From the IMG/VR virus record IMGVR_UViG_3300044656_000027, positions 32,001-96,000 of that record: a stretch of 64,000 nt of DNA, one strand, 5' to 3'. Both the position numbers and the translations under genes were made by a program. Below are positions 12,581 to 48,633 of the stretch, piece after piece; position 1 is the stretch's first letter, and each line of letters begins with the position of its first letter. Under the pieces are notes generated by a model. It saw nothing but the letters and a program-made list of their open reading frames with translations. It had not been told where the DNA came from and did not search any database. This DNA comes from a virus. Lineage: Duplodnaviria; Caudoviricetes.

Positions 12581-13387
12581 CTATCCTACAGGGTTGAGCA
12601 AATTGGAATCGGTGATTGGAAGGATATTGAATTGAATATCGATACCACATCTCTGAGGGACCATTGCCGAAGTAAAGTGTGTCCACGTTACGTCAAAGCC
12701 AGTAATGAAACCATAGTAGGACAGTGACCACTGGTTGGTGGCTCCAAAGAACAGGTGGACAGGCTGCACAGACATTGGTCCTGCTTGCACAGTTACATTA
12801 GCTGATGCCTGAGCACCACCCGTACCAGCTCCGGTAGATGCAGTAGACGTAGCAGGAGCGTTAATACCTAAGAGGTTGTACATAGCTTCTACGTCTACAC
12901 GGACCCCATACTTACCGGCGTCAGTGCTGGCGTATCCACTATCCCATAGTTCAAAAGTTCTGTCGAACAATAGAGAGAATCCTAATGTTGCATTAAGAGG
13001 AACCTTGAACGCCCCGGGATCTCCCTGTACTCGATACTGAGATGGGAGTGGCGTATTGTTCAGGTCCAAGTTACGGGACTCAGCAATAGTGGAAGGATTG
13101 TATAGGAAGTTCACCTGGCGAATAATGCTATGTGTTTCCTTAGCTCCACTAGTAAGGGGAGCCAAGTCAGTAATGAGTCTTCCTCTTTGGAGATTGCCTC
13201 CAGAGTTATATCCGAAACCACTAGCCAAGGGGGGATCAACAGATCGGTTGGTCCCCGCCTTGTAGCTATTGGTTATATTCAAAATGTTTGGGTGGAACGG
13301 GGGATTACTAAAGATAGTAGTCCCCGGCGTTCCTGATAAAGCAGGATACGGAGTACCCTGAATTGGTGCATTAACTGGTGTTGACAT
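12581..13387 (-). CDS. tail tube initiator-like baseplate protein
   Basis: FLYNPSTI, FSLLFDRT, VTWTHFT..MVPQRC motifs; follows tape measure. Confidence 0.65.
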   Translation of the reverse strand: MSTPVNAPIQGTPYPALSGTPGTTIFSNPPFHPNILNITNSYKAGTNRSVDPPLASGFGYNSGGNLQRGRLITDLAPLTSGAKETHSIIRQVNFLYNPSTIAESRNLDLNNTPLPSQYRVQGDPGAFKVPLNATLGFSLLFDRTFELWDSGYASTDAGKYGVRVDVEAMYNLLGINAPATSTASTGAGTGGAQASANVTVQAGPMSVQPVHLFFGATNQWSLSYYGFITGFDVTWTHFTSAMVPQRCGIDIQFNILPITDSNLLNPVG

Positions 13388-16300
13388 TAGACTCCGACCT
13401 GTATGTTCTTTACTCGGGTGTACTCTTCGATTGCGTCAACGATAAGCTTACCAGTCGCCTTAGCTTCTGTTGGCGTACCAGAGTATCCCTCAGGTAGGTT
13501 TACATTTATATTGCCAATTGAGATGGTGCCGCCATTTCCACGAGAGCTAAGTCCTGGATTGAACTGGTTGTTCATAAGTACCTGACGAATTGATTCAGCC
13601 TGCTGAGCAGGAATGATCATCTCGCCCTTGTGGACAATAGCTTGCTGATCCTTATCAATGTTGTAAGCACCAGCAGCATACCAATTGTTCTTCTGGTGGA
13701 AGGACCATGCCTTAGTTGGATCTCCATAGCGGTCAGCAATGTAACCCATCATCCACTGGAGCTGTGTGTCTCCGTTGGTCTGCCAATCCTTACCAGCGCT
13801 AGCCATCTTGGAACCTGGTAGAGCCTGAGGAATTCCATAGGCCCCAGAGCTTGGGTTGGTAGCGTGGACATCCCAGCCAGACTCAGACATGACCAAAGCA
13901 TTGAAGTCATCCCACTCATTACCCCAACCCCTTGCATTAAGAAGCTGCTTGGCGTATGCCTGTAGAGACGCCTTGTCGTTTTGCCCATTACCAGTAGGTA
14001 TGTTTCCTGCACCCGCAGTTGCTCCCGTAGAAGCAGCAGATCCAGTAGAAGATCCAGCAACTACAGAAGTTCCGGCTGTTGAGGTAAGAGCAGCCATTAA
14101 GTTCTGCAACTCTGATGTGCCACCATATGCTCCACCATCTCCACCAGCACCCGGCATGCTGCCTAGAGTTTGTGGAGTCACCTGGTTGTTGGCTGACTGT
14201 CCTGTGCTGGTGTTGTTCAGGAATCTACCAGCATTGGTGAACTCACCAGGGTTCTTAGCGCGAATACGAACATCAGCACCAGTGTGCGGAGCCTCAATGA
14301 TCTGTCCGCCACCAATATCCATAACAACGTGGTGAGCAGGATTACCAACGAATAGCAAGTCACCAGGAAGAGTGTTGTTCAGATCAACACGCTGAGATGC
14401 AGACTGCTGGTCAGCAGCAACACGAGGAATCTTTACACCCGCCTGACCGTAAGCCCACTGAGTAAGACCAGAGCAGTCAAAGCCAACTCCAGGTGTTTCT
14501 CCACCCCAAACGTATGGAACACCAAGTTCTTTCTTAGCGAAACCAATAACAGTTCCCGCGCTTACTCCCATATTGGAAGCACCATTACCAGGAGTATTAC
14601 CTACTACAGAAGAGGAACCTCCACCAGAACGTCCAGTGGTTCCAGATCCTCGGTGAGTTGCGATGAAGTTATTAATCCACGCGTCTCTCTTCTTTTGATC
14701 CTTCCACCCAATCGGAGAGTTCAGACCGTATTGGTACTGGGACATGAAGTCTTCGAAGTTGCCCTTTGTCCAATCTGCTGGTCGAGGGATCTTGGAGAAT
14801 GGAATGTTCTTGGAGTGGTTGTACATCCAATCCCAGGTAACACGCTGAGTTGTATCTCCTGCACCAGCAGCAGCTAACAAAGTAAGACCAACTGGATTAG
14901 CAGCGGTCATAGCTGCTTCGGTTCCACCCGCAGCCGTAAGTCCGGGTTCCATAGACGTGATGTTGTAAGCGCCACCAGGACCGGGGGTCCCACCAATTGG
15001 ACCTGTTGGAAGTCCACGGCTAGCCGCCGCAGCGCCACCAGAACCAAACCCCATGTTCTTCATAAGCCCTGACAGGCTTCCTAAGCCACCGAAAAGTTTC
15101 ATGGCACCGAAGAGTCCGGCACCCATTCCAAAGGCTCCTGAGAAGCCACTGAGAGCGTTTGAGATAGGTGCTGCGATTCCAGCAGAAGTACCAACAAGCT
15201 TGTCCAATCCAGTGGTCTTCATCAAATCAGTAAGGGCCTGACTGAACTTGTTAACTACATCTGTTGTGTTCTTGAAGGCTGTAGCCATGGATTCATTGAT
15301 ATCTTCCTGGCGGTTCATTCTTGTGGAGTTCAAGTTACGTTGAGCTTCAAAGGCAGACTGGCCAACCCCAATGGACTTAAGCTGATTGCGTGCTGCTAAG
15401 CCTGCCTTGGAATTGGAGGACGCTTGATTCATCAGAGAGACATACTGGCTCTGGGACATTCCCTTGTTCTGAGCAAGAACCATTCCTTGTAGGTATCCCA
15501 TGTACTCTTGCTGAGTTTGTCCACTCCAACCCATCTGCGCACCAAGACTTCTCAAGGTTGTAGCCAAGGAACCGTTTTGAGTTATGGACTTACCAAATCC
15601 TTGAGAGGTGATCTTCTGATTTCCAAAGACATAACTATACAGACTTTGAGCAACATCTCCTACGTTCTGAGTATTGGGATTAATGTTCAGTCCGAATGCT
15701 TGTCCCATCATAATGCTTCGTGCAGAGAACGTCTGCTGTGCAGTAGTAGCCGCAGTGCTGAAACCTAGAGTTGGGTTAGCATATGCAAAACCACCAACAG
15801 CACTCATCTGCTGACGGTAGTAAGCATTCTGAGAACCATTAGCATTCATCGAAGGACCGAAAGTGTACTGCCCCGTGTACTGACCCTTGTAAAGATCCTG
15901 TGCGGATAGTGCTCCATAGGATTGCTGCATTGCATAACGCGCGGCATTGTTGATATTTGCTTGGGTTACATTACCAGCAAGTTGAGAAGCCTGGACACCG
16001 TAGTAATCCTGCTGCATCATGCCAGCCATGTTCTTGTTACCGTAATCAGCCGCAGCCGTTCCAATGGCAGCTAGAGCAGCAAATCCAGCAGACAGGCGAG
16101 ATCCAGAACCCAAAGCACCAAAGCTTCCGCCCCCACCATTAGCATTGCGGTTAAGCATTCCTCCAAGAGTGAACTTACCGCCGCCCCCATTAGCGGAGTA
16201 GTTAGCGCGATTAGATGACGAGTTCCAATTGTAGGAGCTAGTAGATCCAGTGGCACGGTTGTTGGAGCTGGTCAGTGCATTCATCGCACCAGCCAACTTC

Positions 16301-16410
16301 TCCACATTCATATTCAGTTTATCGATTTTGGCATCTAATGAATCAACCGCCTGTTGAAGACCATTGGTCCCCAACAAGCGGCTGGCTCCGATGTTGTTTT
16401 CCTCAGCCAC
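13387..16410 (-). CDS. tape measure protein with NlpC/P60 peptidase and lytic transglycosylase domains
   Basis: 1007 aa helical N-half; LGVPYVWGG...FDCSGL...HV; ESGW...ATNPSSGAYGIPQALP...YIADRYG. Confidence 0.9.
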   Translation of the reverse strand: MAEENNIGASRLLGTNGLQQAVDSLDAKIDKLNMNVEKLAGAMNALTSSNNRATGSTSSYNWNSSSNRANYSANGGGGKFTLGGMLNRNANGGGGSFGALGSGSRLSAGFAALAAIGTAAADYGNKNMAGMMQQDYYGVQASQLAGNVTQANINNAARYAMQQSYGALSAQDLYKGQYTGQYTFGPSMNANGSQNAYYRQQMSAVGGFAYANPTLGFSTAATTAQQTFSARSIMMGQAFGLNINPNTQNVGDVAQSLYSYVFGNQKITSQGFGKSITQNGSLATTLRSLGAQMGWSGQTQQEYMGYLQGMVLAQNKGMSQSQYVSLMNQASSNSKAGLAARNQLKSIGVGQSAFEAQRNLNSTRMNRQEDINESMATAFKNTTDVVNKFSQALTDLMKTTGLDKLVGTSAGIAAPISNALSGFSGAFGMGAGLFGAMKLFGGLGSLSGLMKNMGFGSGGAAAASRGLPTGPIGGTPGPGGAYNITSMEPGLTAAGGTEAAMTAANPVGLTLLAAAGAGDTTQRVTWDWMYNHSKNIPFSKIPRPADWTKGNFEDFMSQYQYGLNSPIGWKDQKKRDAWINNFIATHRGSGTTGRSGGGSSSVVGNTPGNGASNMGVSAGTVIGFAKKELGVPYVWGGETPGVGFDCSGLTQWAYGQAGVKIPRVAADQQSASQRVDLNNTLPGDLLFVGNPAHHVVMDIGGGQIIEAPHTGADVRIRAKNPGEFTNAGRFLNNTSTGQSANNQVTPQTLGSMPGAGGDGGAYGGTSELQNLMAALTSTAGTSVVAGSSTGSAASTGATAGAGNIPTGNGQNDKASLQAYAKQLLNARGWGNEWDDFNALVMSESGWDVHATNPSSGAYGIPQALPGSKMASAGKDWQTNGDTQLQWMMGYIADRYGDPTKAWSFHQKNNWYAAGAYNIDKDQQAIVHKGEMIIPAQQAESIRQVLMNNQFNPGLSSRGNGGTISIGNINVNLPEGYSGTPTEAKATGKLIVDAIEEYTRVKNIQVGV

Positions 16411-42168: not shown

Positions 42169-42214
42169 ATGTGATAAGCCTTTTGGTTAGTAGGGCGCTT
42201 ATCTAATCCCTAAG

Positions 42215-42302
42215 CGGAGATAGAGGGATTCGAACCCTCGGGGCGATTTGAATACCCGCTGCCTTTCCAAGACAGTGCACTAGACCTCTATGCGATATCT
42301 CC
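42215..42302 (-). tRNA. tRNA-Ser(GGA)
   Basis: CTGTC-TTGGAAA-GGCAG; long variable arm. Confidence 0.88.
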
Positions 42303-42311
42303 ATTATTTAA

Positions 42312-42416
42312 TTAGCGTGGATCAGGATTCTTTGTTCCACACTTTGGGCAATACAGATTTCTCTTATCAGAAGGCATATAGCACTTTGGACAATAGAAGA
42401 TACTTCCACCAGACAT
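42312..42416 (-). CDS. 34-aa zinc-ribbon microprotein
   Basis: MSGGSIFYCPKCYMPSDKRNLYCPKCGTKNPDPR; TAATG-coupled. Confidence 0.75.
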   Translation of the reverse strand: MSGGSIFYCPKCYMPSDKRNLYCPKCGTKNPDPR

Positions 42417-42499
42417 TATCGTGCCACCTTGCAGTTATAGCAGTGACCGTACTTGTCCATGTTGATGTGACCACAATACTTACACTTCCAAAAGCTCAC
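42416..42499 (-). CDS. 27-aa RanBP2-type zinc-finger microprotein
   Basis: MSFWKCKYCGHINMDKYGHCYNCKVAR; GTGA-coupled. Confidence 0.75.
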   Translation of the reverse strand: MSFWKCKYCGHINMDKYGHCYNCKVAR

Positions 42500-42588
42500 T
42501 TTGGCTTACCCTTCATCCATCGACAGTGCCAGCACTTTGCTTTTGCTTCATTGTTGTACGAGCCGCAGTTATTGCATTTCCAACCCAT
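42496..42588 (-). CDS. 30-aa RanBP2-type zinc-finger microprotein
   Basis: MGWKCNNCGSYNNEAKAKCWHCRWMKGKPK; GGAGG RBS. Confidence 0.8.
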   Translation of the reverse strand: MGWKCNNCGSYNNEAKAKCWHCRWMKGKPK

Positions 42589-42601
42589 AATATCCTCCAA
42601 G

Positions 42602-42681
42602 CGGAAGGAGGAGGATTCGAACCCCCAGCTATTCACTGAACGGTTTAGCAAACCGTCTGCCAGACCCCTGACTCACCTTCC
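42602..42681 (-). tRNA. tRNA-Ser(GCT)
   Basis: ACGGT-TTGCTAA-ACCGT. Confidence 0.82.
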
Positions 42682-42762: not shown

Positions 42763-42767
42763 ATAAG

Positions 42768-42847
42768 TGGAGCTGCGGGGATTCGAACCCCGGTGCTGAT
42801 AACTTCCGACATGCGGTTTTAATCACCAGACGAAACCAACCAGCCCC
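42768..42847 (-). ncRNA. mini-tmRNA: tRNA-like domain only
   Basis: GGGGCTG-GTTGGTTTCGTC 5' end, G3:U70, A73, canonical T arm, short helix 2 capped by GCATGTCG; no tag reading frame. Confidence 0.75.
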
Positions 42848-42944
42848 ATTGTGTCTGGCCTCATACGGGCTATTACCAGACTTGAAGTGCCCAGAGCCCG
42901 CACTTAGGGCTACTGTCCCGTAAAGGAATCTCGTCAGATTCCAG

Positions 42945-43015
42945 TACCCAGTGAGGGAATCGAACCCCCGCATGTGGTGTGTAAAACCACTGGTCTCCCA
43001 TTAACCTAACCGGGC
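42945..43015 (-). tRNA. tRNA-Val(TAC)
   Basis: GTGGT-TTTACAC-ACCAC. Confidence 0.88.
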
Positions 43016-43047: not shown

Positions 43048-43254
43048 TTAACTGCGATAGGCGATAAAGTCAACCGGCACGCTTTCCTCAACTCCATCGT
43101 GCCATCTGACATCTACGCAAGTGGTTCCCATCCAGTCGTACTCAGGGCAAAGAGTAACGCCTGAGTGATTACGACGAGAACCATTCCTACCAACAACATT
43201 GATCCCTCGGAAGTTGGAAGGTGCTTCCTTCTTCTTACGACCAAACAGACCCAC
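43048..43254 (-). CDS. hypothetical protein
   Basis: 68 aa, GGGGG RBS, GTG start. Confidence 0.65.
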   Translation of the reverse strand: MGLFGRKKKEAPSNFRGINVVGRNGSRRNHSGVTLCPEYDWMGTTCVDVRWHDGVEESVPVDFIAYRS

Positions 43255-43286
43255 TGTGTTCCCCTTCGTTAGTTGGTGTGTCTATC

Positions 43287-43565
43287 TTAGACCAGGTAGG
43301 ACCAAGTGTCAACACTACCGTCAGTGCGCTTGAGGCTAATGGATCGATTGACCTCACCCTCCTCAAACGTCCAAGCCATCAGACGCAGGTGGTACTCAGT
43401 GTCAAGGTGCTGGGGAAGACCCATCTCCTCAAGCTCACACAGAGCCTCCATCGTCTTAGCCACGTTGTAAGCGGCAACGGCAAAGCTCTCAACAGGAACC
43501 GTAGAGCTCTTCTTAAAGCCGTCCTTGGACTCGACATCAATAGTGAGTGTAGCCATTTTGTGCAT
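43287..43565 (-). CDS. hypothetical protein
   Basis: 92-aa ORF between tRNAs. Confidence 0.65.
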   Translation of the reverse strand: MHKMATLTIDVESKDGFKKSSTVPVESFAVAAYNVAKTMEALCELEEMGLPQHLDTEYHLRLMAWTFEEGEVNRSISLKRTDGSVDTWSYLV

Positions 43566-44353: not shown

Positions 44354-44429
44354 CACGGATGACAGGAGTTGAACCTGCATGTGTCCTTTAACCTTTCTAC
44401 GCGTTCGTAGCGCGAGGGTATACATCCGC
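44354..44429 (-). tRNA. atypical rewired tRNA-Arg(ACG)-like RNA
   Basis: Acceptor GCGGATG/CATCCGT and T arm intact, no D arm; CGCG-CTACGAA-CGCG hairpin followed by long linker with TAAAGG. Confidence 0.65.
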
Positions 44430-48288: not shown

Positions 48289-48633
48289 TTATTCCAATTC
48301 AGTAATCGGTATCCAGCCCTTGCCCTCACGGCCCTCTACTAGAAGGTTACGAGGCTCCATGTCTCTGGCTACTCTGTCTTCAACCTTCTCAAGCCCATGA
48401 AGGGTCCTGTGTGTCCATATGCGGAACTTTGAGGACTCTGCCATACGTCTGAATGCCAAACGCTTGTTGATCAGCTGAGAGCGCTCCTCACGGCTTTCAC
48501 CTACAGCACCGGAAGGCTTATGAATTACTCTTACGCCCGTTTCGCGCTTATTCTGATTCTGACCACCCTTTCCTCCTGAACGGAAGGTTTGGACCTCACA
48601 ATCATGAATAGTCACGCTAAATGCTTTTTCCAT
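48289..48633 (-). CDS. stand-alone GGQ peptide chain release factor domain (RF-1/ArfB/PrfH-like)
   Basis: [26 protein letters not shown]......ERSQ..NK..A. Confidence 0.9.

Follow-up and report, generated by a model that had tools for sequence, protein, structure and literature searches.

Zinc fingers of the RanBP2/NZF type (Pfam PF00641; Nup153, RanBP2, ZRANB2, Npl4, TRABID and TAB2) are domains of large eukaryotic proteins and have partners (Ran, ubiquitin, spliceosomal RNA) that are absent from the bacterial host of a phage. Small, basic zinc ribbons with the same core are found among ribosomal and archaeal proteins (archaeal L40e, bL32 and S27e; HVO_2753; the N-terminal finger of ArnA), the ribosomal ones binding RNA, and similar phage peptides are annotated in BFVD, among them one of 38 residues from Acinetobacter phage Loki ('putative zinc-finger domain protein'). 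Here we describe three consecutive open reading frames (ORF1, ORF2 and ORF3, together the trio) that encode Cys4 microproteins between two serine transfer RNA (tRNA) genes of an uncultured phage (Caudoviricetes). The DNA analysed, referred to as the window, is a stretch of 64,000 nucleotides (nt), bases 32001-96000 of the IMG/VR virus record IMGVR_UViG_3300044656_000027, which is 111,289 base pairs (bp) long and has direct terminal repeats. The three ORFs are very probably real genes, and the trio is a fresh example of a widespread, functionally uncharacterised class of phage zinc-ribbon microproteins and no new kind of system. Taken as a whole, a reading in which real Cys4 zinc-ribbon genes form a mini-operon in the tRNA array, encode small binders linked to RNA or translation, and reached their site by lineage-specific gain or relocation seems to us a little better than an even prospect.

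Three overlapping zinc-ribbon genes between tRNA-Ser genes

A preliminary description of this DNA had placed three translationally coupled finger microproteins of 27-34 residues between tRNA-Ser genes, with a GGAGG ribosome-binding site before the first and GTGA and TAATG junctions. Three minus-strand ORFs were found just so, and the ribosome-binding site and both junctions are present (Table 1). The trio occupies 277 of the 298 bases of the spacer between tRNA-Ser(gct) and tRNA-Ser(gga), the 5' end of the latter lying 9 nt downstream of the ORF3 stop. ORF1 and ORF2 overlap in GTGA, ORF2 and ORF3 in TAATG, and Shine-Dalgarno-like sequences stand before ORF2 (AAGGG, 9-nt spacer) and ORF3 (AAGGTGG, 7-nt spacer). 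With stop/start overlaps, upstream Shine-Dalgarno-like sequences, a single strand and no terminator-like site, the arrangement is that of an operon, and translational coupling is predicted. A 51-residue version of ORF1 beginning at TTG was rejected, its first 17 codons falling inside tRNA-Ser(gct).

CxxC-x10-CxxC spacing is common to all three ORFs, and the encoded peptides are basic, with net charges of +3.5 to +5.5 and isoelectric points (pI) of 9.1-9.6. The RanBP2-type consensus W-x-C-x2-C-x3-N-x6-C-x2-C, which the first two peptides had been said to match exactly, is indeed seen in both: from W3 to C22 in ORF1 (W3-x-C5-x2-C8-G-x2-N12-x6-C19-x2-C22) and from W4 to C23 in ORF2. ORF3 reads CPKC-x10-CPKCG; it has neither W-x-C nor Asn at the conserved position and therefore falls outside the consensus. 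By sequence, then, these are very probably basic single-domain Cys4 microproteins, two of them RanBP2/NZF-like and one a generic zinc ribbon.

Table 1. Coordinates in the window of the trio, its flanking tRNA genes and nearby signals.
Feature	Position	Strand	Remarks
ORF1	42496..42588	minus	ATG 42588 to TGA 42496; 30 residues; pI 9.6; RanBP2/NZF-like Cys4 zinc ribbon
ORF2	42416..42499	minus	GTG 42499 to TAA 42416; 27 residues; pI 9.1; RanBP2/NZF-like Cys4 zinc ribbon
ORF3	42312..42416	minus	ATG 42416 to TAA 42312; 34 residues; pI 9.1; generic zinc ribbon
Shine-Dalgarno GGAGGA	42593..42598	minus	4 nt before the ORF1 ATG; 2 nt past the 3' end of tRNA-Ser(gct)
tRNA-Ser(gct)	42601..42681	minus	ARAGORN; Rfam tRNA-clan match 42603-42681; no encoded CCA
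tRNA-Ser(gga)	42214..42302	minus	ARAGORN; Rfam tRNA, 52.7 bits
Sigma-70-like promoter match TTGACA-17-TAAGAT	43284..43312	minus	consensus match only; nearest same-strand match upstream

Predicted fold and family membership

AlphaFold (AF2) models reached a mean predicted local distance difference test score (pLDDT) of 90.9 for ORF1, using an alignment of 19 W-K-C finger sequences, and of 83.4 for ORF3, using 8 sequences. The best matches of both models against PDB structures (Foldseek) were almost all RanBP2/NZF fingers, with template modelling (TM) scores of 0.7-0.86, root-mean-square deviations of 0.4-2 Å and probabilities of 0.9-0.99; they include Nup153, RanBP2, TRABID, ZRANB2, RBM5 and TAB2, and for ORF3 also the ArnA finger. 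Those of ORF1 were the fingers of Nup153, TRABID and ZRANB2 (TM 0.76-0.86). All Foldseek E-values were above 0.1, because the domain has only about 27 residues. In both predicted models the two-knuckle zinc-ribbon fold can be superposed on solved RanBP2/NZF fingers.

Sequence comparisons agree in part. Among PDB sequences, ORF2 matched the Npl4 NZF finger first (phmmer, E = 0.0026), followed by MDM2 and ZRANB2, and it also matched PHROG 17317, a family of 31 positions (E = 1.5e-4). A profile of the W-K-C family, built from the 19-sequence alignment, found archaeal L40e (E = 2.3e-4), the Sulfolobus ArnA finger (5.6e-4) and the Npl4 NZF finger in the PDB, at E-values from 2e-4 to 1e-3. Against Pfam, all three ORFs gave only sub-threshold matches to generic zinc-ribbon and rubredoxin-like families, and PF00641 (gathering threshold 27 bits) was not listed for any of them even at E<=10. 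The ORF3 scores were below cut-off for Zn_Ribbon_1 (PF13240, 20.4 against 27), Zn_ribbon_3 (PF13248, 19.6 against 25) and DZR (PF12773, 20.0 against 27.3), and ORF1 and ORF2 scored lower than ORF3 against the generic zinc-ribbon families. NCBIfam held nothing near its cut-offs for the trio, and the ESM Atlas returned only scores of 0.90 or less, to unnamed or generic zinc-ribbon clusters. The RanBP2-type identity proposed for ORF1 and ORF2 is consequently valid at the level of motif and predicted fold, with the ORF2-Npl4 similarity beside them, but not at the level of hidden Markov models, where PF00641 matches neither.

It had further been pointed out that some such fingers bind single-stranded RNA or protein partners, and suggested that these may bind tRNA, ribosomes or defence proteins. 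The T-F dipeptide through which NZF fingers bind ubiquitin is not present (C-T-F-m-N in Npl4 versus C-G-H-I-N in ORF2 and C-G-S-Y-N in ORF1), nor is the N-W-A-R-R of ZRANB2 (2k1p/3g9y), in whose place ORF2 has N-M-D-K-Y and ORF1 N-N-E-A-K. We take the RNA-contact residues of ZRANB2 to be the aromatic residue and the Arg pair that follow the invariant Asn. Since the ubiquitin- and RNA-contact residues are replaced, no ligand can be transferred by homology, neither RNA nor one of ubiquitin type, and the suggested binding to tRNA, ribosomes or defence proteins is speculative.

Evidence that the ORFs are genes

Over the whole genome, four ORFs shorter than 100 residues contain two CxxC pairs 6-20 residues apart, namely the trio and one 61-residue ORF elsewhere; random genomes of first-order composition gave a mean of 1.3 such frames. 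The pattern C-x2-C-G-x2-N-x6-C-x2-C, back-translated, matched the genome twice, both times in the trio, and the reversed control did not match at all. The clustering of Cys4 frames exceeds chance. The N-termini of ORF1 and ORF2 (MGWKC and MSFWKC) also fit the M-x(0-2)-W-K-C pattern of stand-alone members of the class, such as MIWKC, MWKC, MTGWKC and MRGWKC.

The locus was found in two Logan assemblies, of which one (L168) is identical to the window and the other (L169) is 99.7% identical over 3.5 kilobases (kb). Within the trio, L169 shows three differences from the window (42559, 42482 and 42470), all of them at synonymous third positions, one in a Ser codon of ORF1 and two in a Cys and a Gly codon of ORF2. 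Gene calling in Logan assemblies had picked up ORF3, and a variant of it (P0002, on a 111,309-bp Logan contig from sample SRR23978794) carries only the substitutions S2A and S5T, outside the Cys core.

The frames could in principle have arisen by chance in a non-coding spacer between tRNAs, or belong to a structured RNA, with no protein made. Such an origin would be in keeping with their size, all three being shorter than usual gene-calling lengths, and with ORF1 and ORF2 not being found in a collection of 15 billion proteins; genes of such length are routinely missed, and these two may serve as an illustration. A structured RNA in place of the genes was rejected: no Rfam family lies inside the trio, and the region folds no better than shuffled sequences (z = -0.42), leaving nothing to suggest a structured non-coding RNA. 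Three consecutive frames, each with a complete Cys4 ribbon and the extended family consensus, a pattern missing from the rest of the genome and from the reversed control, together with confident AlphaFold models and purely synonymous variation, make a chance origin highly improbable and bring this reading close to refuted.

A different possibility is that the trio derives from one three-finger protein, split by frameshifts into three overlapping cistrons and now either decaying or partly fused again by -1 slippage at the overlaps. Where W-K-C fingers occur in tandem in metagenome contigs, they are joined in frame by short linkers within one polypeptide in four cases out of four, some viral proteins (e.g., L103 and L121) have two or more fingers, and both junctions of the trio involve a -1 shift; the library matches of ORF3 beyond its own cluster, too, run nearly all through several ribbon repeats. 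Each cistron of the trio nevertheless has a Shine-Dalgarno-like sequence and a start codon to itself, the latter 1-8 residues ahead of the first Cys, a position also seen in stand-alone members, and stop/start overlaps of 4 nt and 1 nt are those of ordinary translational coupling. The frames are intact, the near-identical relative shows synonymous changes only, and neither junction contains a canonical X XXY YYZ slippery heptamer. We consider a split protein improbable.

Occurrence in phages and viral contigs

The back-translated pattern W-K-C-x2-C-G-x2-N-x6-C-x2-C was found in 85 viral contigs, nearly always inside an ORF with a start codon. The finger occurs as a stand-alone peptide of 25-37 residues or as an N-terminal, C-terminal or internal module of larger proteins. 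When 19 short fingers (17 from IMG/VR with ORF1 and ORF2) were aligned, 11 of them matched PF00641 at E<=1 (best 2e-6), a count that is partly circular because the members were selected by pattern.

The ORF3 pattern CPKC-x10-CPKCG was present in 66 contigs, mostly as inserts in proteins of about 500 residues, stand-alone forms being rare. In a library of 1.8 billion proteins (phmmer), nearly all the significant matches of ORF3 outside its own cluster were to proteins with several ribbon repeats, with no single-finger orthologues found, and the ORF3 peptide F-Y-C-P-K-C-Y-M-P did not turn up in a metagenome scan. Searches of the trio against 50,697 GenBank phages (blastn and tblastn) gave no close relative, the E-values being about 0.05 for ORF1 (Salmonella jumbo phages) and 0.2 for ORF3.

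In other viral contigs a W-K-C microprotein has as its immediate same-strand neighbour another small Cys4 ORF of a different kind (L126:5726-5896, L165:608-833 and L085:772-1121; for example, 30 and then 25 residues), and tandem sets of unlike finger microproteins thus appear to recur outside the phage studied here. An operon of bare single fingers had been called unusual. That wording is too strong, as the pattern is widespread in phage contigs, a PHROG family exists for it and members are annotated in cultured phages.

Finger genes in the tRNA islands of related phages

A 1007-residue protein encoded at 13387-16410 shares about 43% identity with proteins of BRock, Alone3, LuckySocke, GiJojo and pSt2308; on this basis the phage, which is of soil type, is a distant, uncultured relative of that group of Streptomyces phages. 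Alone3, LuckySocke, pSt2308 and GiJojo each encode one zinc-ribbon microprotein of 47-49 residues between tRNA-His and tRNA-Tyr, and Alone3 gp58 passed the Pfam threshold for Zn_Ribbon_1 (33.5 bits). In BRock, the slot between tRNA-Tyr and tRNA-His holds gp168, a divergent 40-residue Cys4 finger (NC_048650.1, 95565-95687; L244:1566-1688). RefSeq labels gp168 'RNA ligase', a name almost certainly taken over in error from the adjacent Rnl1 gene. The His-Tyr finger gene is under strong purifying selection in the cultured phages, with ratios of non-synonymous to synonymous substitution rates (dN/dS) of 0.08-0.19, and in whole-genome scans of Alone3, GiJojo and BRock it was the only match to C-x2-C-G-x2-N-x6-C-x2-C in each. 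In the window, the His and Tyr tRNA genes abut and the fingers stand in the Ser-Ser slot instead.

The array itself is subject to exchange. In L169, a 73-nt tRNA-like cassette, called tRNA-Ser(cga) by ARAGORN, stands where the window has a 103-nt non-tRNA spacer (42850-42952). The exchanged region extends over 42850-43015 of the window and L169:1795-1946, and 15 positions of the adjoining tRNA-Val(tac) are different. Near-identical phages, then, show a cassette-like exchange within the tRNA array, and the array is mosaic.

A model for expression, function and origin

In the model that we favour, the co-oriented array would be transcribed as a tRNA-messenger RNA (mRNA) precursor and processed along the lines of established tRNA maturation. 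Two cuts, one of ribonuclease (RNase) Z type behind the CCA-less tRNA-Ser(gct) and one by RNase P ahead of tRNA-Ser(gga), would free a roughly 300-nt mRNA, with its 5' end 2-4 nt before the strong Shine-Dalgarno sequence. At this sequence ORF1 would be initiated, and ORF2 and ORF3 would then be translated through stop/start coupling. Each peptide might fold as a two-knuckle ribbon round a single zinc ion and act as a small binder, whose target, during the time when the island is expressed, may most plausibly be an RNA or else a protein engaged in translation or RNA metabolism. A target of this type is favoured because of the basic charge, the restriction of the fingers to the island in this clade and a faint resemblance to L40e and other RNA-binding ribbons. 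The trio would represent a lineage-specific gain, or a relocation, within a recombination-prone tRNA array.

Several observations weigh against a particular link with tRNAs or translation. A tRNA lies within 1 kb of only one of the 85 W-K-C loci, and none of six small zinc ORFs lay near a tRNA in a set of 80 thioredoxin loci, 34 of them containing tRNAs; on these counts a general association of such fingers with tRNAs across phages was rejected. In larger proteins the finger is joined to unrelated modules (ParB, a 2078-residue minor-tail protein, membrane proteins) with no common functional theme, and the residues by which RanBP2-type fingers are known to contact ubiquitin and RNA are, as noted above, not kept. 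Purifying selection on the trio itself rests on three substitutions only. The cassette swap in L169 lies only about 260 nt upstream of the trio, and co-location with tRNAs may reflect the array as a permissive insertion hotspot and nothing else.

In Alone3, whose two Ser tRNAs are separated by 5 nt, the trio is also missing from the syntenic slot. As to the closest uncultured relative, no finger of any kind was found (G001), and its syntenic array (L003, thioredoxin 60% identical) is without the trio. From the Alone3 slot and G001 it follows that the trio is dispensable for the clade. Loss of the Cys spacing and frames in relatives had been named in the preliminary description as what would refute it, and here the outcome is divided: the trio is not kept in the nearest relatives, but the finger class is kept elsewhere in the array of the clade. 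The finger microprotein is, in sum, a recurrent but movable and dispensable resident of the clade's tRNA island.

Much of this would suit microproteins that are real but bind a host protein, in host takeover or anti-defence, the tRNA array being only a tolerant and suitably timed site. The finger class is found in many unrelated phages without a tRNA neighbourhood, the trio is an accessory, lineage-specific insert, and the array is mosaic even between phages that are 99.7% identical. Solved RanBP2/NZF fingers, moreover, mostly bind proteins (Ran, ubiquitin), and the archaeal ArnA finger binds ArnB, to judge from PDB titles. On the other side, five cultured relatives each have a single finger gene, always in the same tRNA slot and strongly constrained by purifying selection, and no other finger of the pattern is present in the three genomes scanned whole. 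The strongly basic peptides fit nucleic-acid binding at least as well, and no known anti-defence family was matched. A protein-binding role in takeover or anti-defence is nearly as likely as a role linked to RNA or translation, and as a complete account we regard host-protein binding as a serious, if somewhat doubtful, alternative to the RNA- or translation-linked mini-operon outlined above.

A bolder proposal is that the finger microproteins dock on tRNAs or the ribosome, much as zinc-ribbon ribosomal proteins do, as a dedicated part of a translation-takeover island. We consider this unlikely. If it were true, the docking peptides could mark or protect phage tRNAs against host anticodon nucleases, or re-tune ribosomes, and docking would explain why Borockvirus-like phages have a finger gene in the tRNA array and why it has expanded to three coupled genes here. 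Should the fingers act on tRNAs or ribosomes, a protein component would be added to the emerging view of phage tRNA arrays as modules for counter-defence and translation takeover; should they not, they would form one more family of small host-takeover binders. The culturable Streptomyces phages with a finger gene in a fixed slot (Alone3, GiJojo, pSt2308 and BRock) offer a testable handle and are the most useful lead.

The tRNA island

The minus strand carries 32 co-oriented tRNA genes (ARAGORN) between 41226 and 52187. Interspersed among them, in what amounts to a tRNA/RNA-repair island, are protein genes for a thioredoxin, an Rnl1-type RNA ligase, an HNH endonuclease and a protein with an RF-1 domain, and several ORFs without a family. 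The promoter match in Table 1 is a candidate start of a mixed tRNA/mRNA transcript, as judged from its consensus. A second promoter-like match lies upstream of the trio on the same strand, at 43737-43709, and the scan of the minus strand from these two matches to the trio found no terminator-like site.

Between tRNA-Val and tRNA-Cys, on the minus strand at 42765-42847, is an 83-nt element resembling transfer-messenger RNA (tmRNA), with an Rfam RF00023 score of 58.2 bits (gathering threshold 47). It is aligned to model positions 1-374, nearly all of which are deleted, leaving the tRNA-like domain only, without the tag-coding part; ARAGORN made no call here. Among the tRNA-Leu genes, 48292-48633 (minus strand) encodes a protein of 114 residues with a Pfam RF-1 domain (59.3 bits), which by its sequence is predicted to be a stand-alone ArfB-like peptidyl-tRNA hydrolase domain. 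At 44354-44429 on the minus strand, in the position of tRNA-Arg(acg) in relatives, there is a sub-threshold Rfam tRNA match (27.1 bits, gathering threshold 29) without an ARAGORN call, which may be a degenerate or rearranged tRNA. Small ORFs of the tRNA island (43048-43254 in the window; L003:2996-3196 and 1379-2161 in the relative) share the motif G-L-F-G-R-K-K-K or F-G-R-K-K-K, at either the N- or the C-terminus.

Comparison with known zinc fingers

Compared with the eukaryotic RanBP2/NZF fingers, ORF1 and ORF2 fit the consensus, and the predicted fold agrees at TM scores of 0.76-0.86. They differ in having no PF00641 match, no T-F as in Npl4 and no N-W-x-R-R as in ZRANB2, and in being stand-alone peptides of a bacterial virus. 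The ribosomal and archaeal ribbons share the core, the small size and the basic character, but the likeness to L40e and ArnA consists of marginal scores that come from the Cys/Gly/Asn scaffold; the flanking segments of the ribosomal proteins are missing and nothing points to an association with the ribosome.

Closer in architecture are the W-K-C microproteins of IMG/VR, PHROG 17317 and the Loki peptide, which have the same form of 25-37 residues, M-x(0-2)-W-K-C-x2-C-G-x2-N-x6-C-x2-C with a short basic tail. The IMG/VR members are 30-43% identical to ORF1; they are usually single, occasionally paired (L126 and L165), and do not lie beside tRNAs.

The His-Tyr fingers of the cultured relatives (gp58 of Alone3 and LuckySocke, gp50 of GiJojo, the pSt2308 homologue and gp168 of BRock) have F-C where the window has W-x-C, and those of the Alone3 group carry a conserved lysine/arginine-rich tail that the window peptides lack. 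Beyond the motif they have no detectable sequence similarity to ORF1-3, a tblastn search with which found none of them, and there is one gene in the His-Tyr slot as against three in the Ser-Ser slot. They are nevertheless alike in clade, island, Cys spacing, small size (40-49 residues) and basic character and, like the trio, are flanked immediately on both sides by tRNA genes of the same strand.

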